From an uncultured Collinsella sp. (lineage in GTDB: Bacteria; Actinomycetota; Coriobacteriia; Coriobacteriales; Coriobacteriaceae): a stretch of DNA of 64,000 nucleotides. Positions 4,446 to 64,000 of this stretch are shown here, piece by piece. Where the stretch lies: the NCBI GenBank assembly GCA_905211535.1, contig CAJMAZ010000001.1:7089-71088 (forward strand), written 5' to 3'. How positions within the stretch are numbered: position 1 is the stretch's first letter; each line of letters starts with the position of its first letter. The notes below the pieces were generated by a model. That model searched no databases. It had not been told where the DNA came from and saw nothing but the letters and a program-made list of their open reading frames with translations. The translations under genes were made by a program, and so were the position numbers.

Positions 4446-4573
4446 GGGGTAGTTAATTTGGGACGGGGCTTTTTTAGCTACCCTTTGACTGTCGTCGAAT
4501 CGATGGGTGCCAGGGCAAATATCAACTGGCATATGGGGGTAGCTAAAATAGCCCCGTCCCAAATTAACTACCC
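4446..4573. repeat. REP/BIME-like inverted pair, copy A
   Basis: Two 38-39 nt GTAG..CTAC units in inverted orientation with a 51-nt spacer. Unit 4446-4483 is GGGGTAGTTAATTTGGGACGGGGCTTTTTTAGCTACCC. The reverse complement of 4535-4573 is GGGTAGTTAATTTGGGACGGGGCTATTTTAGCTACCCCC. Same family as 30166-31315 and 39284-39391. Confidence 0.9.
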
Positions 4574-4587
4574 TTGGGGTGGGTGGA

Positions 4588-5685
4588 CTAAAGCTGTCCG
4601 GCGTCCTCGAGGAGGGCGTCCCAGATGGCGAGGGCGGCGGCTGCTTCGGCTACGGGGACGGCTCGGGGGACGATGCAGGGATCGTGACGGCCGTGGACCG
4701 AGAGCTCGGCATTTTCTATGGCGTCCATGTCTACGGTCTGCTGCTCGCGGCCAATTGAGGGCGTCGGCTTTACGGCCATGCGCCACATGACGGGCGCGCC
4801 GGTCGAAATACCGCCCAGGATGCCGCCGGCGTTGTTGGACTCAACCTCGATCTCGCCGGTCTCGGCGTCGATGCGATACGGATCGTTGTTCTCGCTGCCG
4901 CGCATGGCGGCCACGGCAAAGCCCATGCCAAACTCCACGCCCTTTACGGCGGGAATGCCAAAGGCGATTTGCGCGATGCGGTTCTCGATGCCGTCGAACA
5001 TGGGGTCGCCGATGCCCGCGGGAAGCCCGTAGATGCCGCACTCCACGATGCCGCCGATGCTATCGAGTTCGTCGCGCGCGGCTAGGATCTCCTCGCGCAT
5101 GCGACCGGCAGCGGCGGCGTCAATGCAGGGCAGGTCGTTCGTAAGAATTGCCTTGCGGTCGGCCTCGCGATAGACCATATCGTCCATCGGCAGGTCGGAG
5201 ATGCCGCCGATCTGCGCGACATGCGCCATGACCTGAATGTCGCGTGCCTCGAGTGCCTGCAGCGCAATGCCGCCGGCGATGCATAAGGGTGCCGTTAGGC
5301 GGCCGGAGAAATGCCCGCCACCAGCGACATCGTGCATGTTGTGATACTTCACGCGCGCGGGGAAGTCCGCATGTCCGGGACGGGGCTTGCGGCGCAGCTC
5401 GGAGTAATCCTTGGAGCGCGTGTTGGTGTTCTCGATAATCGCGGCGATGGGCGCACCGGTGGTATGTCCATCGACCACACCGGCGATGATGTGCGCGGCG
5501 TCGGCCTCGCGGCGCTTGGTCGCGGTCTCGTCGCGACCGGGGGCGCGACGGTCGAGGAAGGCCTGCAGCTTCTCCTGGTCCACGGCGATGCCCGCCGGGA
5601 TGCCATCGAGCGAGCAGCCGATAGCGGGGGAGTGCGATTGGCCGAAGATGCTTAAGTGCAAGACGTTGCCAAAGGTCGAGGACAT
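4588..5685 (-). CDS. aroC: Chorismate synthase
   Basis: 365 aa, FGQSHSPAIGCSLDG, GRHDPCIVPRA motifs. Confidence 0.95.
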   Translation of the reverse strand: MSSTFGNVLHLSIFGQSHSPAIGCSLDGIPAGIAVDQEKLQAFLDRRAPGRDETATKRREADAAHIIAGVVDGHTTGAPIAAIIENTNTRSKDYSELRRKPRPGHADFPARVKYHNMHDVAGGGHFSGRLTAPLCIAGGIALQALEARDIQVMAHVAQIGGISDLPMDDMVYREADRKAILTNDLPCIDAAAAGRMREEILAARDELDSIGGIVECGIYGLPAGIGDPMFDGIENRIAQIAFGIPAVKGVEFGMGFAVAAMRGSENNDPYRIDAETGEIEVESNNAGGILGGISTGAPVMWRMAVKPTPSIGREQQTVDMDAIENAELSVHGRHDPCIVPRAVPVAEAAAALAIWDALLEDAGQL

Positions 5686-5686
5686 G

Positions 5687-7006
5687 CTATTCCTCCTCGA
5701 GTGTGACCTTGCCGCCCAGCAGGCGGTAGTGGTCGAAGAAATCGGGATAGGACTTGTTGACGGCCTCGGCGCCGTGGATCACGACCTCGCCGGTGGCGCG
5801 GCTCGCGGCGATGGCGGCCATCATGGCGATGCGGTGGTCGTTGTGCGAATCGACCTCGCCGCCGGTGAAGGCATCGACACCCTTGATGATGAGGTCGTCG
5901 CCGGCAATACGCACCTGTGCGCCCAGCGCGGTGAGCTCGCGGGTGGTGGTAGCCAGGCGGTCGGATTCCTTGATACGCAGACGGGCGCAATCGCGGATAA
6001 AGGTGCGGCCCTGTGCCAGCGAGGCCACGGCCGAGATAACGGGCACCAGGTCGGGAATGTCGTGGGCACTCATCTCAAACCCGGCGAGCTTGTCGGACTG
6101 CACGGTGGCGGCGTTGGTGGAGCGCACGATGCGGGCGCCAAAGCGCGAAAGCGCGGCAAGCACGTTGCGGTCGCCCTGTGCGGAGCTCAGTGACACGCCC
6201 TCGACGGTGATGGGGTCGGTGCCGATGGCGCCGGCGCACAGCCAAAAGGCGGCGTTGGACCAGTCGCCTTCGACAGCAACGCTGCCGGGCGTGCGATACG
6301 AGCCACTGCTCACGCGGAAGTTTGTGACCTCGGGCTGGCCGTCCCTGGCGGGAATACGCTCGACGTTGACCTCGACGCCAAAGGCCTTCATGGCCTGGAT
6401 CGTCAGGTTGATGTAGGGGCGGCTCTCAATGAGGCCGGTCACCTGCACGCAGGAAGGCTGGGCGAGCAGCGGGGCTGCCAGCAGCAGGCCCGAGATGTAC
6501 TGCGAGCTCACGTTGCCCGGCAGCACAAAGGTGCCCGGGCGCATGCGGCCGCTCGTCTTGAGCGGAAAACCGCCCAGACCCTGTAGGTCGCAGCCGGCGG
6601 CGATGATCTCGTCCGAGAGCGGGGACAGCGGACGGGCGCCCAAGCGTCCCTGACCCACGAAGGTGGCATTCGCACCCAGCGCGCAGGCGACGGGCAACAT
6701 AAAGCGGAGCGTGGAGCCGCTTTCGCCACAGTCAAGCGTGCCGCCGGCAAGGGCCTTGAGCAGGCCAAACTCAATACTCTTCATGGTGGGGTGGACCTGG
6801 AAGCCGTCCTCGACGGTCTCGATGCGAGCGCCCAGAGCCGTGAGGCAGCGCACCGTGGCCTCGATGTCGGCGCAGGTGGTGTTGCAGGTGACGTGTGTCT
6901 CGCCGTTGGCAAGCGCAGCGCAGATGATCAGGCGATGCGCCATCGACTTGGACGCGATGGCGGGAACGGTGCCCTTAAGCGGGGACGGGGTGATGCGGGC
7001 TAGCAT
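5687..7006 (-). CDS. aroA: 3-phosphoshikimate 1-carboxyvinyltransferase (EPSP synthase)
   Basis: 439 aa, SKSMAHR, LDCGESGSTLRF, HNDHRIAM motifs. Start overlaps the aroB stop (ATGCTAG). Confidence 0.95.
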   Translation of the reverse strand: MLARITPSPLKGTVPAIASKSMAHRLIICAALANGETHVTCNTTCADIEATVRCLTALGARIETVEDGFQVHPTMKSIEFGLLKALAGGTLDCGESGSTLRFMLPVACALGANATFVGQGRLGARPLSPLSDEIIAAGCDLQGLGGFPLKTSGRMRPGTFVLPGNVSSQYISGLLLAAPLLAQPSCVQVTGLIESRPYINLTIQAMKAFGVEVNVERIPARDGQPEVTNFRVSSGSYRTPGSVAVEGDWSNAAFWLCAGAIGTDPITVEGVSLSSAQGDRNVLAALSRFGARIVRSTNAATVQSDKLAGFEMSAHDIPDLVPVISAVASLAQGRTFIRDCARLRIKESDRLATTTRELTALGAQVRIAGDDLIIKGVDAFTGGEVDSHNDHRIAMMAAIAASRATGEVVIHGAEAVNKSYPDFFDHYRLLGGKVTLEEE

Positions 7007-10287: not shown

Positions 10288-10364
10288 GCCCTATTAGCTC
10301 AGGGGATTAGAGCGTCTGCCTCCGGAGCAGAAGGCCGTTGGTTCGAATCCAACATGGGGCACCA
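10288..10364 (+). tRNA. tRNA-Arg (anticodon CCG)
   Basis: 77-nt cloverleaf: acceptor GCCCTAT/ATGGGGC, anticodon stem TCTGC/GCAGA with loop CTCCGGA, T arm GTTGG-TTCGAAT-CCAAC, encoded CCA. Confidence 0.9.
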
Positions 10365-10425: not shown

Positions 10426-13164
10426 GTGATGGGACGTGGTATGGCAGCAACGGATATCGAGCGCGGACTCTCGACCGCCGAGGTCGAGGAGCGCATCGCC
10501 GCCGGTAAAATCAACCGCAACATGGAGCTCAAGACCAAGTCGGTCAAAGAGCTCATCATCGAGAACCTCTGCACGCTGTTCAATTTGATCAACGTGATCT
10601 TGGCGTTTCTGGTCATTTTGACCGGTTCGTTTAAGAATCTGACGTTCCTGTTCGTGGTGTTTCTCAATACCGCCATTGGCGTCATTCAATCCATGCGCTC
10701 CAAGAAGATGGTCGATAAGCTCACGCTGCTGACCTCCAAGAAGGCCATCGCGGTGCGCGACGGCGCCGAGGTGGAGCTCGACCTGGACCAGATCGTGCTC
10801 GACGACATCATCCGCCTGGGGCGCGGCGACCAGATTCCCGCTGACGCCGTGGTGGTTTCGGGCGAGGCGCTCGTGAACGAGAGCCTGCTGACGGGCGAGA
10901 GCGACCTTATCAAGAAGCAGCCCGGTTCCGAGCTCATGAGCGGCAGCTTTATCGACTCGGGCCTGCTGCGCGCCCGCGTGATCCATGTCGGCGCCGACAA
11001 CTACGTGGCCAAAATTAATAACGAGGCCAAGTACGTCAAAAAGGTCAATTCCGAGATCATGAACGCGCTTAACGCCATCGTGCGCTTTGCGAGCATCATC
11101 ATGATCCCGCTCGGTTTGGCGTTGTTTGCCTCGAGTGTGAGCGAGCTGTGGGATGCCGCGGGAACCCCGGGCGATAGCGCGCTTTCGTGGTGCTTCTCCG
11201 AGCTGTTGGCTGGTCATGTGCCTTCGTCGGCGCTGCTGTCCACGGTGGGTGCCCTGCTGGGCATGATCCCGCAAGGCCTAGTGCTGCTGACCTCGTCGGT
11301 GCTCGCCATCGCCACGGTGCGCCTGGCCCGCCGCAAGGTGCTGGCGCAGCAGCTCTACTGCATCGAGACGCTCGCTCGCGTCGACGTGCTGTGCCTGGAC
11401 AAGACGGGCACCATTACCTCGGGTCGTATGGAGGTCGAGGGCACCTACCCGCTGCCGGTTGAGGGTGTTGGCTTTGGCGTGGACTCGGACGAGGCGGCTG
11501 TTCCCGTCGATACCACAGTGCTCGATTTCGCGCTGGCTAACGTCGCGCGTGCGACTTCGGCCGATGCCAACGAGACCTGCCAGGCGCTGCTCAACTATTA
11601 CGCCGATCGCCCGGTCGAGGTGTCTGAGCCGCTGTCGGTCATTCCGTTTTCGTCCTCCAAAAAGTGGAGCGGCGCGTCGTTTGCGCAGGGCTCCTATGTG
11701 ATGGGTGCAGCGCAGTTTGTGCTCTCTGATCGTGTGTTTGCCCAGGTCGAGAACCGTGTCGCCGAGCTTGCCGATACCTGCCGTGTGCTCGTGGTGGCGC
11801 GCGTGGACGGCTTTACGCCCGATGGCGATATGGTGGGCGAGGCCGAGCCCGTGGGCTTTGTGACCATCCGCGACGAGATTCGTACCTCGGCGGCCGAGAC
11901 CATCGGCTACTTTAACGAGCAGGGCGTGACCCTCAACGTGATCAGCGGCGACGACCCGCGTACGGTGTCGTCGATCGCGCGCGTGGTGGGCGTGCCGGGG
12001 GCGGACGCTTATGTGGACGCCACGACGCTCGATACGCCGGCCAAGCTCGATGCCGCAGTGGACCGCTACCATGTCTTTGGTCGTGTGACCCCGCAGCAGA
12101 AGCGCGAGCTCGTGCAGGCGCTCAAGCGCCGCGAGCACACCGTGGCCATGACGGGCGATGGCGTCAATGACGTGCTGGCGCTCAAGGAGGCCGACTGCTC
12201 CGTCGCCATGGCGGCCGGCTCCGATGCCGCGCGCAACGTGGCCGAGATCGTACTCGTCGACAACGACTTTGCCTCGATGCCCGCCGTGGTGGCCGAGGGC
12301 CGTCGCTCCATCAACAACCTGCAGCGTTCGGCCTCGCTGTTCCTTACCAAGACGCTGTTCTCGATGGGCCTGGCGGCGCTGTGCATTGCGCTGCCGCCGT
12401 ATCCCTTCGAGCCCATCCAGATGACGCTCATCAACTTCTTCTGCATCGGCGCGCCGGGCTTTGTGTTGGGCCTTGAGCCCAACAATGCTCGCGTGAAGGG
12501 TGCGTTTTTGACCAACGTACTCAAGCGTGCACTGCCGGCGTCAATTGCGGTCATTTTGGCTGCGGCGCTCGATATCTTTGTGGCGCGCGTGTTTGGCTTT
12601 AGCCAGCTCACGCTGTCTACGATGTGCCTGCTTACGTCGTGCGCGGCGAGCGTCAGTCTGATCTGGCGCATCTCGCAGCCGCTCACGCCCTTACGTGTTG
12701 TGCTCTTTGTGTTTGTAGTCGCCGGCATCCTGGTGGGCGTTATCGGATTTCCGGAGCTGCTGTCCATTGCCAACCTGTCGATGGGTCAGATGGTTATCTT
12801 GGCTGTCATCGTGGTCTTTACCTGCTCGGTGTTCTTTAAGCTGGCCACGATGATGGATTCGCTCAAGCCGCGTCGTCGTCATGCCGCAACTGGTTTTGGC
12901 CGTGGTGTGCGCGTCCACCTGGGTCGCGGTGGCGGCAAGGTGAGCTCGACGGGTTCGACGGCCGAGCGTTTTGCCAAGCGCGTCGCCGCCGACATGGCGC
13001 AGCGCCGCGAAGATCGCACCGCTCGCGAGGCCGAGGCCCGCGCACTCGAGGGCGTGGCCCAGGCCCAGCCCAAGAAAAAGAAGAGTACCGGAGCCAAGCG
13101 CTCTCGCGTGACCAAGTCCGCCCAAGGCATCAAAGTCTCGATGCCAAGCAAAAAGAAGAAGTAA
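10426..13164 (+). CDS. Cation-transporting P-type ATPase (P2/HAD-IC family), with a basic C-terminal tail
   Basis: 912 aa. TGES actuator motif, DKTGTIT phosphorylation site, MTGDGVNDVLALKEAD hinge, multiple TM segments. Start could be 10426, 10429 or 10441. Confidence 0.9.
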   Translation: MMGRGMAATDIERGLSTAEVEERIAAGKINRNMELKTKSVKELIIENLCTLFNLINVILAFLVILTGSFKNLTFLFVVFLNTAIGVIQSMRSKKMVDKLTLLTSKKAIAVRDGAEVELDLDQIVLDDIIRLGRGDQIPADAVVVSGEALVNESLLTGESDLIKKQPGSELMSGSFIDSGLLRARVIHVGADNYVAKINNEAKYVKKVNSEIMNALNAIVRFASIIMIPLGLALFASSVSELWDAAGTPGDSALSWCFSELLAGHVPSSALLSTVGALLGMIPQGLVLLTSSVLAIATVRLARRKVLAQQLYCIETLARVDVLCLDKTGTITSGRMEVEGTYPLPVEGVGFGVDSDEAAVPVDTTVLDFALANVARATSADANETCQALLNYYADRPVEVSEPLSVIPFSSSKKWSGASFAQGSYVMGAAQFVLSDRVFAQVENRVAELADTCRVLVVARVDGFTPDGDMVGEAEPVGFVTIRDEIRTSAAETIGYFNEQGVTLNVISGDDPRTVSSIARVVGVPGADAYVDATTLDTPAKLDAAVDRYHVFGRVTPQQKRELVQALKRREHTVAMTGDGVNDVLALKEADCSVAMAAGSDAARNVAEIVLVDNDFASMPAVVAEGRRSINNLQRSASLFLTKTLFSMGLAALCIALPPYPFEPIQMTLINFFCIGAPGFVLGLEPNNARVKGAFLTNVLKRALPASIAVILAAALDIFVARVFGFSQLTLSTMCLLTSCAASVSLIWRISQPLTPLRVVLFVFVVAGILVGVIGFPELLSIANLSMGQMVILAVIVVFTCSVFFKLATMMDSLKPRRRHAATGFGRGVRVHLGRGGGKVSSTGSTAERFAKRVAADMAQRREDRTAREAEARALEGVAQAQPKKKKSTGAKRSRVTKSAQGIKVSMPSKKKK

Positions 13165-13246
13165 CTACGCGCCCTGGCGATGTTGAATTGGTGCCTTGCT
13201 CCTGTGGGGCCGTGGCGATGTTATGCTCTAACCTCGATCGTTTGAA

Positions 13247-29710: not shown

Positions 29711-30166
29711 ATGGCCGACGAGACCATGACCGACGAGCAGATTCTTGAAGGTGTGGAGCACAAGAGCTTCGCCGCCACGTCCGACCGCACTGCCGCCTCG
29801 CTGTCCGCGAGCGGTGTCGCCGCCGAGGATGTCGCCCGCGCCGCCGCGCAGGCCGCCTACGACAAGAAGGGCGAGGACGTTCGGGTGCTCGACCTGACCG
29901 AGCTTTCCGACGTATGCGACTACTTTGTGCTTGCCACCGGTGCCAACAACCGCCAGGCCGATTCGATCGTCGACGAGATCGAGGAGAAGGTCGCCGAGGC
30001 TTGCGGCGAGCATCCGTTCTCCATCGAGGGCCGCGAGCAGAAGACCTGGATGCTCATGGACTACGGTTCGGTTGTCGTCCACGTCTTCACTCCCGAAGCC
30101 CGCGACTTCTACCGCCTCGAGAAACTCTGGGGAGACGCCCCCCAGCTCCCCCTCAACCTCCTCTAG
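29711..30166 (+). CDS. rsfS: Ribosome silencing factor RsfS
   Basis: VLDLTELSDVCDYFVLATGAN...WMLMDYGSVVVHVF...YRLEKLW. Confidence 0.92.
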   Translation: MADETMTDEQILEGVEHKSFAATSDRTAASLSASGVAAEDVARAAAQAAYDKKGEDVRVLDLTELSDVCDYFVLATGANNRQADSIVDEIEEKVAEACGEHPFSIEGREQKTWMLMDYGSVVVHVFTPEARDFYRLEKLWGDAPQLPLNLL

Positions 30167-30196
30167 TAGCTCATTTGAGACGGGGTTTAGCTACCC
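30166..30196 (+). repeat. REP-like unit B1 (degenerate)
   Basis: GTAGCTCATTTGAGACGGGGTTTAGCTACCC. Begins on the last base of the rsfS stop. Confidence 0.75.
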
Positions 30197-30208
30197 TCAC
30201 GCATATCG

Positions 30209-30250
30209 CCGGGCAGTTGCGGTTTTCCGCACCTGCCCGGCTTTCTTTTT
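30209..30250 (+). terminator. Rho-independent terminator of rsfS operon
   Basis: CCGGGCAGTTGCGG-TTTT-CCGCACCTGCCCGG stem (13 bp, 1 mismatch) followed by CTTTCTTTTT. Sandwiched between repeat units B1 and B2. Confidence 0.8.
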
Positions 30251-30258
30251 GCCCAAAA

Positions 30259-30291
30259 GTAGCTAATTTGGGACGGGGCTTTTTTAGCTAC
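30259..30291 (+). repeat. REP-like unit B2
   Basis: GTAGCTAATTTGGGACGGGGCTTTTTTAGCTAC, preceded by AAAA. Identical core to 39284-39316. Confidence 0.9.
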
Positions 30292-30386
30292 TACCTACCG
30301 TTCGCCGATAGAAGCGAGTTGCGGTTCATTGCGTGATATTTAGCTTTCCGACTCGGGTAACGTATTTGTTATCTGTAGAGGAGGAG

Positions 30387-31142
30387 ATGCGTATGACTCG
30401 GACCGCGCGGGAAATCTCTGTTTACGGCTATTACCATGTCGTCCAAAAGGGCTGTGGTGGTCAGCTGATATTTGAGGATGCTGACGATCGACTCTATCTG
30501 ATTCGACTGATAGCTTCGAAATGCCAGAAGTTCAAAGTGGATGTCATCGCATGGTGCCTTATGGATAATCACATTCACTTGTTGCTAGATGACGGGCATG
30601 CTCACCTGAGCGATTGCATGCATTCGATTACGACGGCGTATGCCATGTATTTCAATTCTAAGACAGGCAGGAGAGGTCCTGTTTTCCAGGATCGATTTAA
30701 GAGTGTGCCGATTCTCGATGATGATCAGCTGCTCAACTGCGTTCGTTACATTCACGATAACCCTGCGAAAGCCAGAGTTGGCACTGCTTCGCTCTATCGC
30801 TGGAGCAGCTTTAGCGAGTATATGGGCTATCCGGGAATTTGTAAGACTGATTGCGTGCTCGGGTTGCTCGGGAATTCCCAGAGATTTTTTGCATTTAGCA
30901 CCTCGGGCGAGCCCAATGGCTATTGCTTCCGTTATGGCGCTCATGTGAGTGATACTGACGCGCTTGAGTTTGCGCAGGCGTTGCTCAAACCATACGAGCC
31001 TCACCATCTCAACGCTCTGCCCAAGGGCGTGCGTGATGACTGTATCCGTAAGCTCAAAAGCGAGGGCTTTTCGATCAAGCAGATCGTGCGCCTCACGGGT
31101 ATCGGCCATTGCACGATTCAAAAAGTTAAAGTTGAAAAGTAG
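30387..31142 (+). CDS. IS200-like HUH/Y1 transposase family protein, RAYT-type (REP-associated), with C-terminal HTH-like tail
   Basis: YGYYHVVQKG, HUH motif WCLMDNHIHLLL, catalytic-Tyr helix VRYIHDNPAKA, RWSSF. C-terminal KSEGFSIKQIVRLTGIGHCTIQKV. Start ATG 30387 or 30393 after GAGGAGGAG. Sampled G+C about 47-50%. Flanked by repeat units on both sides. Confidence 0.85.
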   Translation: MRMTRTAREISVYGYYHVVQKGCGGQLIFEDADDRLYLIRLIASKCQKFKVDVIAWCLMDNHIHLLLDDGHAHLSDCMHSITTAYAMYFNSKTGRRGPVFQDRFKSVPILDDDQLLNCVRYIHDNPAKARVGTASLYRWSSFSEYMGYPGICKTDCVLGLLGNSQRFFAFSTSGEPNGYCFRYGAHVSDTDALEFAQALLKPYEPHHLNALPKGVRDDCIRKLKSEGFSIKQIVRLTGIGHCTIQKVKVEK

Positions 31143-31170
31143 CTCATTTTAGGCGGGATAATTTTGCTGC
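31139..31170 (+). repeat. REP-like unit C0 (degenerate)
   Basis: GTAGCTCATTTTAGGCGGGATAATTTTGCTGC, closest to unit B1. Its TAG is the stop codon of the transposase gene. Confidence 0.6.
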
Positions 31171-31190
31171 GGCCGTCAAACCGGACATCC

Positions 31191-31315
31191 GGGGTAGTCA
31201 ATTTGGGACGGGGCTATTTTAGCTACCCTTTGGCTGACGGTGAATGAATTAGGCCGAATGAATCTCAACCGATATATAGGGGTAGCTAAAATAGCCCCGT
31301 CCCAAATTGACTACC
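31191..31315. repeat. REP/BIME-like inverted pair, copy C
   Basis: Two units in inverted orientation with a 50-nt spacer. Unit 31191-31228 is GGGGTAGTCAATTTGGGACGGGGCTATTTTAGCTACCC. 31279-31315 is its inverted partner. The spacer is homologous to the spacer of copy A. Confidence 0.9.
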
Positions 31316-31360
31316 AATGCCGTGTCGGACGGAAGGCAGCAACCCCCCGTCCAAAAAAGA

Positions 31361-38411: not shown

Positions 38412-39287
38412 ATGGATTGCCCGGTCACCGCTCGTCCCATCGTTATCGTTATCTCCGACTCGCTCGGTGATACCGCTTGTGAGGTGGTGCTTGCGGCGTC
38501 CGGGCAATTTGATGAAGGGGCTTTTCGCGTTTTACGCCTGCCCAAGGTGACCTCCGTGGAGCAGGTTAAGTCATTTGTGGGGCCGCGCGTCGATGCGGAC
38601 CATCGGGATATTGCCGTGTTTCACACCATTGTCGATCCAGCGCTTCGCGCCCGCGTGCTCGATTACCTGGGTATGCTGCATATTCGCTCGGTCGACCTGA
38701 TTGGCCCGACGCTCGCCGTGCTATCGTCGCTTATCGGTGTGCCGCCCAAGGGCGTTGCGGGCGTGATTCACAGGACCGATGACCGCTATTTCCATCGCAT
38801 TGAGGCTATGGAGTATTTCGTTGAGCACGATGACGGGCGCGGTTCCGACGATCTGTCGGGTGCTGATATCGTGCTTTTGGGTGTATCGCGCACGTCCAAG
38901 ACGCCGCTGTCGATGTATTTGGCCTATCAGGGTTACAAGGTTGCTAATGTTCCTTTGGCCCATGGCATGGAGCCGCCGAAGTCAATTTACGACATTGACC
39001 CAATGCGACTGTTTGGCCTGATTTCGACCGTCGACGTTATTTCCGAGATTCGCGATAGCCGGTTGGGCGATGATTACGCCCGTGCCGTTGCCGGCTCCTA
39101 TGCCGAGCCCGAGAGTGTGCGCAGCGAGCTCGAGGAAGCCCGTGCCCTCATGAAGCGCCTAGGCTGCTTTGTGGTGCGTACCGACGGCAAGGCCATCGAG
39201 GAGAGCGCCTCCGAGATCATCAGCCACTTGGAGGAAATCCGAGAAGCCCGTGCCCGCCGCGCCGCCCGTCGAGCCCAACAAAAGTAG
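38412..39287 (+). CDS. Pyruvate, phosphate dikinase regulatory protein (PDRP, DUF299 bifunctional kinase/pyrophosphorylase)
   Basis: P-loop LGVSRTSKTPLS. Adjacent to ppdK. The stop TAG 39285-39287 lies inside repeat unit D1. Confidence 0.88.
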   Translation: MDCPVTARPIVIVISDSLGDTACEVVLAASGQFDEGAFRVLRLPKVTSVEQVKSFVGPRVDADHRDIAVFHTIVDPALRARVLDYLGMLHIRSVDLIGPTLAVLSSLIGVPPKGVAGVIHRTDDRYFHRIEAMEYFVEHDDGRGSDDLSGADIVLLGVSRTSKTPLSMYLAYQGYKVANVPLAHGMEPPKSIYDIDPMRLFGLISTVDVISEIRDSRLGDDYARAVAGSYAEPESVRSELEEARALMKRLGCFVVRTDGKAIEESASEIISHLEEIREARARRAARRAQQK

Positions 39288-39391
39288 CTAATTTGGGACG
39301 GGGCTTTTTTAGCTACCCCGGCTGAGGTCGCGATCTTTTTGGTCGATTGCCTGCGGGGGCAGCTAAAAAAGCCCCGTCCTAAATTAGCTAC
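39284..39391. repeat. REP/BIME-like inverted pair, copy D
   Basis: Two units in inverted orientation with a shortened 35-nt spacer. Unit 39284-39319 is GTAGCTAATTTGGGACGGGGCTTTTTTAGCTACCCC. Unit 39355-39391 is GGGGGCAGCTAAAAAAGCCCCGTCCTAAATTAGCTAC. Confidence 0.9.
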
Positions 39392-39470
39392 TTATGGTAA
39401 AGCGATTTAGCAAGAAACTAGCATTTGACCTGCAAGCTTCTTGCATTGGTATCTTCATAAGGTAACCACC

Positions 39471-63348: not shown

Positions 63349-63380
63349 AACTAAAACTAGCTGCCTGCTGCATCGCCCCG

Positions 63381-63429
63381 CTCATTGGGGACAGACTTAC
63401 ATGAGTGCTTTCACTCATTTGGGACAGAC
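63381..63429 (+). repeat. Two direct CTCATT(T/G)GGGACAGAC repeats bracketing a small hairpin; related to the REP-unit core
   Basis: CTCATTGGGGACAGAC (63381-63396) and CTCATTTGGGACAGAC (63414-63429). Hairpin ATGAGTG-CTTT-CACTCAT at 63401-63418. Compare unit B1, GCTCATTTGAGACGGGG. Confidence 0.6.
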
Positions 63430-63560
63430 ATCGTTTTGCCATTTTGCCGTTCTGGGCCTGTTTTTGCCGTTCATTGGATATATATAGATCACAGGCTCAG
63501 CATTTCGCGTTCCTTCTCTCCTTTTAGGTGTTGCCTGTTCAGTTTTTGAAAGGAGAGATT

Positions 63561-64000
63561 ATGCCTCGATGTGCCCGCGCCGTTTCGCTCACCGGTTATT
63601 ACCACGTCTTTGACCGTGGTAACTCTAAACAGATTATTTTTGAAGATGACTCTGACCGATATCGTTTCTTATCGGACATCTCGGACAAGTTCGCGCGCCA
63701 TAAAGTGGCGGTGTTGGCTTGGTGCCTTATGGACAACCACTTCCATTTGATGGTTGATGACCCATTTGACAATCTTTCAAAGGCGATGCATTGTGCGCTG
63801 ACGGCGTATGCCAAGTATTTCAATGGGAAAACGGGGAGAACAGGCCATCTGTTTGACAATCGCTATTCACGGGTCGCGGTTGAGTCGGACACGCAGGCGG
63901 TACAGCTGCTCGATTATATCCATCTCAATCCCGTGAAAGGTGCGCTCGACTCGCTCGAGGCGTACCGCTGGTCAAGCTACAAGGCATATCAGCTGGGCTA
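63561..64000 (+). CDS. Second IS200-like HUH/Y1 (RAYT-type) transposase paralogue, 3' end beyond window
   Basis: Hand translation from ATG 63561 (AGGAGAG SD) is open to the window end: MPRCARAVSLTGYYHVFDRGNSKQIIFEDDSDRYRFLS...LAWCLMDNHFHLMVDD...LLDYIHLNPVKG...YRWSSYKAY. Not in the ORF track because no stop is reached. Confidence 0.85.
   Translation, partial: MPRCARAVSLTGYYHVFDRGNSKQIIFEDDSDRYRFLSDISDKFARHKVAVLAWCLMDNHFHLMVDDPFDNLSKAMHCALTAYAKYFNGKTGRTGHLFDNRYSRVAVESDTQAVQLLDYIHLNPVKGALDSLEAYRWSSYKAYQLG

Follow-up and report, generated by a model that had tools for sequence, protein, structure and literature searches.

The question raised by this locus is whether a gene for a tyrosine (Y1) transposase-like protein and the short inverted repeats that surround it form a working partnership and, if so, of which kind. 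The gene lies in a 64,000-nucleotide stretch of an uncultured Collinsella sp. belonging to the C. aerofaciens group (contig CAJMAZ010000001.1, positions 7,089 to 71,088; hereafter the window), which has a G+C content of 60.9%. The initial annotation had read the locus as a module of the type formed by repetitive extragenic palindromes (REPs) and REP-associated tyrosine transposases (RAYTs). Our material consisted of the 64-kb window, scattered 8-kb genome blocks and fetched contigs. Based on these data, we consider it probable (roughly 0.75) that the gene encodes a domesticated, chromosomally fixed TIRYT-type TnpAREP-like Y1 HUH nuclease accompanied by a cognate, low-copy family of repeats of ~37 nt that resembles REPINs, that is, REP doublets forming hairpins. 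The family and fold of the protein, its fixed locus, the purifying selection upon it, the dispersal of the repeats, their specificity for each gene, the covariation of their doublets and their polymorphisms were all computed here. The gene is the following.

30393..31142, plus strand: TnpAREP-like (TIRYT-type) Y1 HUH gene, 249 aa (Pfam, NCBIfam, alignment, AlphaFold2 fold and ratio of nonsynonymous to synonymous substitution rates, dN/dS)

The gene had been started at 30387, but the second ATG, 6 nt downstream at 30393, is the likely start, because the 249-aa form agrees with database gene calls and has a better spacing from the ribosome-binding site. The 249-aa product is recorded in 37 blocks of the assembly collection, and a look-up in the same collection returned no 251-aa product. 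The N-terminal ~150 aa of the protein make up the catalytic domain, with the HUH residues H60/H62, Tyr119 and the motif WSS at 137-139; the helical remainder, the C-terminal ~100 aa, has a helix-turn-helix (HTH) at its end. The product matched the Pfam domain Y1_Tnp (PF01797) with an E value of 1.9e-11, and scored 60.4 bits with the NCBIfam model REP_Tyr_transpos, against 16 bits with the IS200 model. The same preference was found in the family alignment of 37 homologues, which are only 37-57% identical: REP_Tyr_transpos matched 37/37 (best 7e-24) and IS200 only 7/37, weakly.

The HUH motif and catalytic Tyr previously recognised in the sequence were upheld by this alignment, in which H60 and H62 (NHIHLL), Y119 (RYIHDNP), W137 and S139 show no variation, and at least 90% of the 37 homologues have S138. 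When the family profile was searched against the PDB, the best match was E. coli TnpAREP (4ER8, E 1e-4), with ISDra2 TnpA reaching only 0.19, and the HUH and Tyr-helix motifs of the family lined up with those of 4ER8. This match required the family profile, as a single-sequence PDB search with the gene product gave nothing relevant. Moreover, the AlphaFold2 model obtained from the alignment (pLDDT 92.6, pTM 0.88) had 4ER8 as its top Foldseek match (E 2e-6, TM 0.69, 151 columns), with the transposases of IS608, ISDra2 and IS200 ranking behind it. Both by alignment and by fold, the HUH and Tyr residues thus stand in the catalytic positions. The HTH-like tail that had also been proposed was recovered as Pfam matches in the C-terminal parts of the homologues, HTH_23 in 8 and HTH_7 in 7 of the 37 (best E 1.7e-7); the match of HTH_7 to the window protein itself is weak, and residues 187-244 are helical in the AlphaFold2 model. 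A family-level annotation already exists, since one homologue has been labelled 'REP element-mobilizing transposase RayT' by the JGI. The low G+C content noticed earlier was confirmed as well, at 49.6% for the gene versus 61.1% for the remainder of the window. Despite vertical inheritance, the family genes of the window, L136 (a 53%-identical orthologue), L130 (Enorma, also sampled as L133), L145 (Slackia), L139, L141 and L143 all lie 5-12 points of G+C below their host loci.

The position of the gene is constant. Ten independent metagenome contigs (L001-L010) and six Collinsella genome blocks encode the exact protein in the interval from rsfS to dinB, that is, as one copy at one syntenic site in 16/16 genomes or contigs examined. 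In L136, the same rsfS-dinB gap holds the 53%-identical orthologue, and the neighbouring genes are 79-97% identical. Among close relatives, dN/dS of the gene is 0.05-0.19, like that of the flanking housekeeping genes. The constant synteny and the low dN/dS indicate that the gene is fixed, vertically inherited, functional and under purifying selection. In L114, the orthologue (5676-6422) of the window gene shows a synonymous divergence (dS) of 1.09 from the window allele, versus 0.05-0.29 in the flanking genes, which suggests that recombination has replaced the allele or that the locus carries an old polymorphism. The L136 orthologue, in turn, has a nonsynonymous divergence (dN) of 0.45 versus 0.05-0.15 for the neighbouring genes. 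Together, the dS of L114 and the dN of L136 suggest an unusual evolution at the rsfS-dinB locus.

The repeats of the window are distributed around the gene and at two further sites, as follows.

30166..30196, plus strand: degenerate unit, GTAGCTCATTTGAGACGGGGTTTAGCTAC, upstream of the gene (motif scan)
30256..30293, plus strand: well-conserved single unit, ~100 bp upstream of the gene
31139..31170, plus strand: degenerate unit overlapping the stop codon of the gene (shuffle-based score)
31191..31317, no strand assigned: 127-bp head-to-head doublet just downstream of the gene
4446..4574, no strand assigned: 129-bp doublet of the long subfamily with a conserved 53-bp spacer, between two minus-strand genes
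39281..39394, no strand assigned: 114-bp doublet of the 'mid' subfamily with a 38-bp spacer

A search for GTAGCTAATTTGGGACGGGGC with up to 3 mismatches returned eight sites (4449+, 4551-, 30166+, 30259+, 31194+, 31294-, 39284+ and 39371-) and none in 100 shuffles. The degenerate ninth copy (31136-31170) outscored all 2000 shuffles, its score being reached only at the nine known positions. The five units near the gene and the two inverted pairs elsewhere that had been described were therefore all recovered: there are nine copies of the ~37-nt unit in the window, five of them within 230 bp of the gene. The well-conserved form reads GGGTAG(C/T)(T/C)AATTTGGGACGGGGCT(A/T)TTTTAGCTACCC. Among single units, ATTTGGGACGGGGCT and TTTTAGCT are close to invariant and the right stem is constant, and the left stem varies (CT, TT, TC, CC, CA). 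The doublet downstream of the gene consists of a plus unit (31191-31228), a 51-bp spacer and a minus unit (31280-31317), with arms that are 100% complementary and a predicted fold of -46.8 kcal/mol (z -13).

The units are closely interlocked with coding sequences. The TAG stop of the RAYT-like gene lies within the GTAG (31139-31142) of the degenerate unit, and that of the upstream kinase/phosphorylase gene (38412..39287) in the 5' GTAG (39284-39287) of the third doublet; the rsfS stop (30164-30166) abuts a unit, with no more than its last G in GTAG 30166-30169. A candidate terminator of rsfS, GCCGGGCAG...CTGCCCGGC with a T-run behind it, is located at 30208-30250, in the interval that separates the two upstream units. 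A consensus terminator scan found none near the gene, and missed this candidate because of its long loop.

The repeat is widespread away from the gene. A scan with the 25-nt core of the unit, using one genome per species, matched at least 119 stretches, all but a few labelled Collinsella and largely from the C. aerofaciens group, so that the motif is not confined to the window loci. Among the matches listed, the sole label of another genus is Alloprevotella sp. (L081, CAVGCW010000010.1), and two more read 'uncultured bacterium'. The L081 block, with 63% G+C and a typical unit, probably derives from Collinsella and entered an Alloprevotella metagenome-assembled genome through a binning error. 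In the 119 listed blocks, a profile search found 207 units. Adjacent units were arranged +/- in 66/70 cases and -/+ in 0/70, with spacers of three length classes (7-9, 37-40 and 51-54 bp), which makes the elements composites about 81, 111 and 127 bp in length. Long-class spacers are conserved in sequence, and those of the mid class comprise two or three distinct sequences at the least. A pair of units 1.6 kb apart in L040 was considered as a larger element and rejected, as it represents two single units around host genes.

When the listed blocks were pooled with the window and L001-L010, the profile matches amounted to 178 elements (doublets or single units), which clustering by flanks assigned to at least ~30 distinct sites. 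Among the matches listed, many of these sites are common to 5-16 genomes, and the site of the 4446..4574 doublet is also occupied in 13 other Collinsella genomes. Altogether, 23 of the 119 blocks map onto the three occupied sites of the window. If sites were sampled evenly, each genome would carry roughly 15-25 occupied loci, a figure obtained by capture-recapture style inference rather than by counting. The intergenic placement, which had been proposed as a check, is biased: the genes around the elements are convergent in 61 cases, tandem in 58 and divergent in 2, and many elements lie 0-17 bp 3' of a stop codon (among the matches listed).

Which structure has been conserved in these repeats? 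The initial annotation had stressed a small hairpin within each unit, but this structure, with its 9-bp stem and 17-nt loop, is weak (-5.5 kcal/mol, z ~-2), and the covariation data point to the doublet instead. The predicted folding energies of doublets are -46 to -48 kcal/mol (z -11 to -13). In an alignment of 29 long-class doublets, arm-to-arm pairing is intact in 98.6% of cells, and compensatory changes affect 5 pairs and 22 cells. These values were equalled by 0/500 shuffles for cells, 0/500 for the covariation score and 1/500 for pairs, and slid registers gave 0-1. Because many rows of the alignment are orthologous sites, the number of independent compensatory events is ~5 rather than 22. 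The conserved objects thus appear to be the core sequence and the long doublet hairpin, rather than the small hairpin of the single unit.

Other genes of the family stand beside repeats of their own. L136, L130, L139, L141, L143, L145 and a second paralogue in the window all have flanking inverted repeats that are proper to each gene, apart from a GGAC(G/A)G core that they have in common. The L136 orthologue is flanked by TTTTTAGGACGGGGTC, with two direct copies upstream and one inverted copy downstream, and related units occupy two more gaps between genes within 20 kb. The core is conserved, in a lineage at dS ~1, in the one of these gaps that is orthologous to the 39.3-kb site of the window. 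Upstream of dinB in L136 (12037-12116), there is also a 36-nt near-perfect palindrome (ACCTGGTCCCTTCGCCCCTGGCACTTTGGGACCACC and its complement) that contains GGGAC. The Enorma homologue is fixed between recN and aroQ in six samples and is flanked by hairpin units of the form GTGAGAAT-17 nt-ATTCTCAC, containing GGACGG. L139, L141, L143 and Slackia have each their own flanking inverted repeats with GGGAC-type cores, and in L136, L139 and L143 the cognate repeats are dispersed as well. Inverted doublets of the L143 repeat, GGACAACGGGGACGTAGC, stand ~77 bp start to start at 2512-2606 and 4836-4931, within 20 kb. As the L143 homologue is a distant one, REPIN-like amplification is not unique to Collinsella. 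The pattern of one gene and one repeat argues that the proteins recognise their repeats.

The second paralogue and its repeat are located at the end of the window.

63561..64000, plus strand: second, divergent paralogue, 47.6% identity over 143 aa, cut by the window end
63378..63430, plus strand: upstream half of its terminal inverted repeat, with two CTCATT(T/G)GGGACAGAC motifs

This paralogue is fixed at an adhE-rpmB locus. Its terminal inverted repeats of ~50 bp contain two GGGGACAG or TGGGACAG motifs each, and the inverted partner of 63378..63430, beyond the window end, was seen in L146 (9855-10900)/L148. Relatives of the second paralogue in other strains (at least 90% identity) have many different lengths, from 84 to 247 aa, which suggests decay of the coding sequence across much of the population.

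Several polymorphisms indicate that the elements have been active at the DNA level. One of them concerns an empty site of the window.

13159..13176, no strand assigned: empty site of 18 unrelated bases, where L046 carries a doublet (688-799)

Additionally, the gap between glyS and the gene that follows it is occupied by a unit in L136 but not in the window, and one orthologous site holds a doublet, the left unit only or the right unit only, depending on the genome. In one Enorma sample, a 514-bp segment that includes aroQ (type II dehydroquinase) is inverted exactly between inverted units (L133 10744-11306 versus L130 10744-11261), with a 45-bp tandem duplication at one junction in L133. Direct repeats of at least 4 nt, as left by target-site duplication, were found at 6 sites versus 3.1 +/- 1.6 expected, a difference that is not significant, with uncertain element boundaries. 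Subject to that uncertainty, the absence of a consistent duplication fits Y1-type chemistry better than a miniature inverted-repeat transposable element (MITE) moved by a DDE transposase.

From these observations we infer catalysis, a single-stranded DNA substrate, a role for the HTH and mobilisation of the repeats by the RAYT-like protein. On this reading, the gene has been immobile between rsfS and dinB since before the Collinsella lineages diverged to dS ~1, and copies of its flanking repeats have reached a few dozen intergenic sites, in the main immediately past stop codons. Most copies are head-to-head doublets of 81, 111 or 127 bp, whose single strands are predicted to form a hairpin with a 37-bp stem. 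The protein may act in trans on single-stranded repeats, for example at the replication fork. By analogy with E. coli TnpAREP and IS608 TnpA, HUH and Tyr119 would cleave and rejoin the DNA via a 5'-phosphotyrosine link. Recognition of the invariant ATTTGGGACGGGGCT core would fall to the C-terminal HTH.

The name of the Pfam domain, 'Transposase IS200 like', and a gene G+C content 11 points below that of the host would be in keeping with an ordinary insertion sequence of the IS200/IS605 family whose left and right ends are the repeats. We regard this as extremely improbable. Such ends would travel with the gene, yet the repeats occur without it at no fewer than ~30 sites; the gene itself is present once at a single syntenic place in all 16 genomes or contigs, with the 53%-identical orthologue of L136 in the same place; there is no tnpB; and hidden Markov models, profile and fold put the protein nearer to TnpAREP than to IS200 TnpA. 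The insertion sequence is thus refuted by the fixed site, the gene-free repeats and the TnpAREP-type protein. It is also quite improbable that the repeats are a MITE family moved by an unrelated DDE-type transposase, the Y1 gene merely lying in an AT-rich gap that collects insertions. The doublets do look like MITEs, with their 37-bp terminal inverted repeats, three spacer lengths and conserved long-class sequence, and they lie just 3' of genes as many MITEs do; moreover, the sequence inspected comprises 64 kb plus scattered 8-kb blocks. On the other hand, seven other gene lineages have differing flanking inverted repeats that are always beside the gene and share the GGAC(G/A)G core, 5/9 of the window units crowd within 230 bp of the gene, target-site duplications are not consistent, and the blocks inspected contained no other transposase between units.

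A third possibility is that the repeats are host elements under selection, such as 3'-end RNA hairpins, bidirectional terminators or protein-binding sites, with the protein being a DNA-binding regulator or maintenance factor. The age of the shared sites, including the 39.3-kb site occupied even in a lineage at dS ~1, speaks for it, as do the location of elements 0-17 bp past stop codons, the three TAG stops that units supply or abut, the compensatory changes that keep the long hairpin, and the HTH domain. However, HUH, Tyr and WSS are invariant across proteins of 37-57% identity, which argues that catalysis has been retained, and the presence/absence, doublet/singlet and inversion polymorphisms reveal dynamics of DNA. 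The repeats also correspond neither to an Rfam family nor to a canonical terminator signal; at gathering thresholds, Rfam returned only two tRNAs in the window and no family for the repeats. As a replacement for a TIRYT-type nuclease with cognate repeats this reading is improbable, although it is compatible with that explanation rather than exclusive of it.

Some of our results weigh against a nuclease that mobilises these repeats. A Y1 substrate would be expected to form a single-unit hairpin, but that hairpin is weak, and the stems within units show no compensatory changes, the same as shuffles. Complementarity between doublet arms could stem from the copying mechanism or from gene conversion, and not from selection. 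The score of 60.4 bits is below the equivalog cut-off of 80 bits for NF047646, and the protein is accordingly related to the modelled RAYTs without being an equivalog. When the C-terminal domain was modelled alone (pLDDT 83.7), it gave no significant Foldseek match in the PDB. Copy number is low, at the 15-25 loci per genome estimated above, and recent transposition must be rare because most sites are common to many genomes. Among the fetched loci, the sole pair of filled and empty sites (L046 versus the window) has diverged junctions and no clean boundary. Finally, we found no biochemical evidence for any TIRYT-type protein in the publications consulted.

By architecture, the best literature match for the system is the TIRYT/TIRtron class, or TnpAREP subclass 2.1. 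Di Nocera, De Gregorio and Rocco (2013; PMC3733652) described RAYT-like genes flanked by longer inverted repeats instead of GTAG REPs, and named the proteins TIRYTs and the units TIRtrons. The sequence GGGGWSAS is common to many of their terminal inverted repeats (TIRs), some of which are self-complementary and some of which form moderately abundant dimer families (PMC3733652). Later work (Quentin et al. 2018; PMC6006769) assigned most TIRYTs to subclass 2.1, whose defining features are a serine motif following the Tyr and, at the C terminus, an HTH (Bac_DnaA_C, HTH_23 or HTH_28). The Collinsella protein is likewise a RAYT-like Y1 protein with a C-terminal HTH of the HTH_23/HTH_28 type and a serine motif after the catalytic Tyr (W137, S138, S139), and its genomes also harbour several divergent genes, each with its own repeats. 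The gene-flanking inverted repeats have a core that may correspond to GGGGWSAS: TGGGACGG in the main unit agrees at 6/8 positions, GGGGACAG in the second paralogue is exact, and relatives have GGGGACGG, GGGGACAG or AGGACGG. Amplified, in part self-complementary dimers, known for TIR repeats of some species, are a further likeness. The host is different, being one of the Coriobacteriia, and so is the repeat, since Quentin et al. (2018) found no REP-like sequences beside subclass 2.1 genes, whereas the Collinsella repeat is capable of forming hairpins and has been amplified as REPIN-like doublets with arm covariation.

The E. coli TnpAREP (RAYT, YafM; 4ER8) is the best structural and profile match, and shares with the Collinsella system a single-copy, chromosomally fixed gene amid cognate repeats. 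As in the REPs and bacterial interspersed mosaic elements of E. coli, the repeats lie 3' of genes and often in inverted pairs. However, the E. coli protein has 165 aa and no HTH domain, and sequence identity over the Foldseek alignment is only ~19%. The enterobacterial RAYT, to which the locus had been likened, is thus not the closest class; the HTH-bearing subclass 2.1 matches better. GTAG is reportedly needed by E. coli TnpAREP, as the work of Ton-Hoang and of Messing in 2012 is said to have shown. In E. coli, REPs are an unpaired 5' GTAG beside a short imperfect palindrome and number hundreds of copies. In canonical REPs the GTAG is an unpaired 5' tag (PMC3733652). In Collinsella, GTAG is paired, with CTAC, and the estimated copy number is in the tens. 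Nor is GTAG conserved among relatives: the cognate repeats beside the L136 orthologue and the Enorma homologue lack it. Of the REP/RAYT-like module initially proposed, the Y1 gene at a fixed locus amid a dispersed repeat has therefore stood, but the argument from GTAG, the small hairpin and the enterobacterial class have not.

The REPIN-RAYT systems of Pseudomonas (Bertels and Rainey 2011; Bertels et al. 2017, PMC5581495) are similar in that the replicating unit is apparently an inverted doublet with a long hairpin, the gene is single-copy and vertically inherited with long-term persistence, and paralogous genes have repeat families of their own. The Collinsella protein differs by its extra HTH domain, and the Collinsella repeat population is, by the estimate above, an order of magnitude smaller, nearer to RAYT Groups 1 and 4, whose flanking 16-mers occur 12-14 times (Bertels et al. 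2017; PMC5581495). With IS608 and ISDra2 TnpA, the protein shares the HUH/Tyr catalytic fold and, presumably, the chemistry of hairpin recognition in single-stranded DNA. The IS200/IS605 elements, in contrast, are multi-copy mobile insertion sequences whose left and right ends differ and which often carry tnpB, and their TnpA proteins were weaker Foldseek matches (E ~1e-4 over 100-150 columns, mostly ~100-120), the longer alignments having root-mean-square deviations above 12 Å.

In the published surveys, GTAG and TIR families came from Proteobacteria, Cyanobacteria, Chloroflexi, the PVC group and a few others, Actinobacteria being unmentioned (PMC3733652), and Actinobacteridae had IS200-type genes only (PMC6006769). 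Our literature search found no publication linking Collinsella or Coriobacteriia with RAYTs or REPs. A gene-repeat system of the RAYT/TIRYT type is thus first documented here in Coriobacteriia, although the kind of system is known from other bacteria. Apart from this system, the window contains two tRNA genes identified with Rfam (654-727 and 10288-10361), which bear no relation to it.

A broader picture, unlikely to hold in all its parts together, is that of a Coriobacteriia-wide set of ancient partnerships, each made up of an HTH-bearing TnpAREP-like gene and its repeats. The HTH would read the conserved GGGAC(G/A)G core, and the replicated unit would be the long-hairpin doublet under compensatory evolution. 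The gene locus would undergo allele replacement or accelerated divergence, as in L114 and L136, and the repeats would rearrange host genes, as in the aroQ inversion of Enorma, and supply stop codons. If so, these bacteria would offer a tractable Gram-positive gut model for the co-evolution of REPIN-like populations with their enzyme, and a first functional handle on the uncharacterised TIRYT class.

At the level of the system described here, RAYT/TIRYT-type partnerships are extended to Coriobacteriia, abundant Actinomycetota of the human gut from which neither PMC3733652 nor PMC6006769 reported them. This implies a new host group only, and no new mechanism or category. An enzyme that is HTH-bearing and similar to subclass 2.1 can go together with REPIN-like doublets, an association that had escaped detection in PMC6006769. 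Furthermore, short-read assemblies break around the gene because of the repeats, which also occupy the 3' ends of genes and therefore matter for the annotation and assembly of Collinsella genomes.

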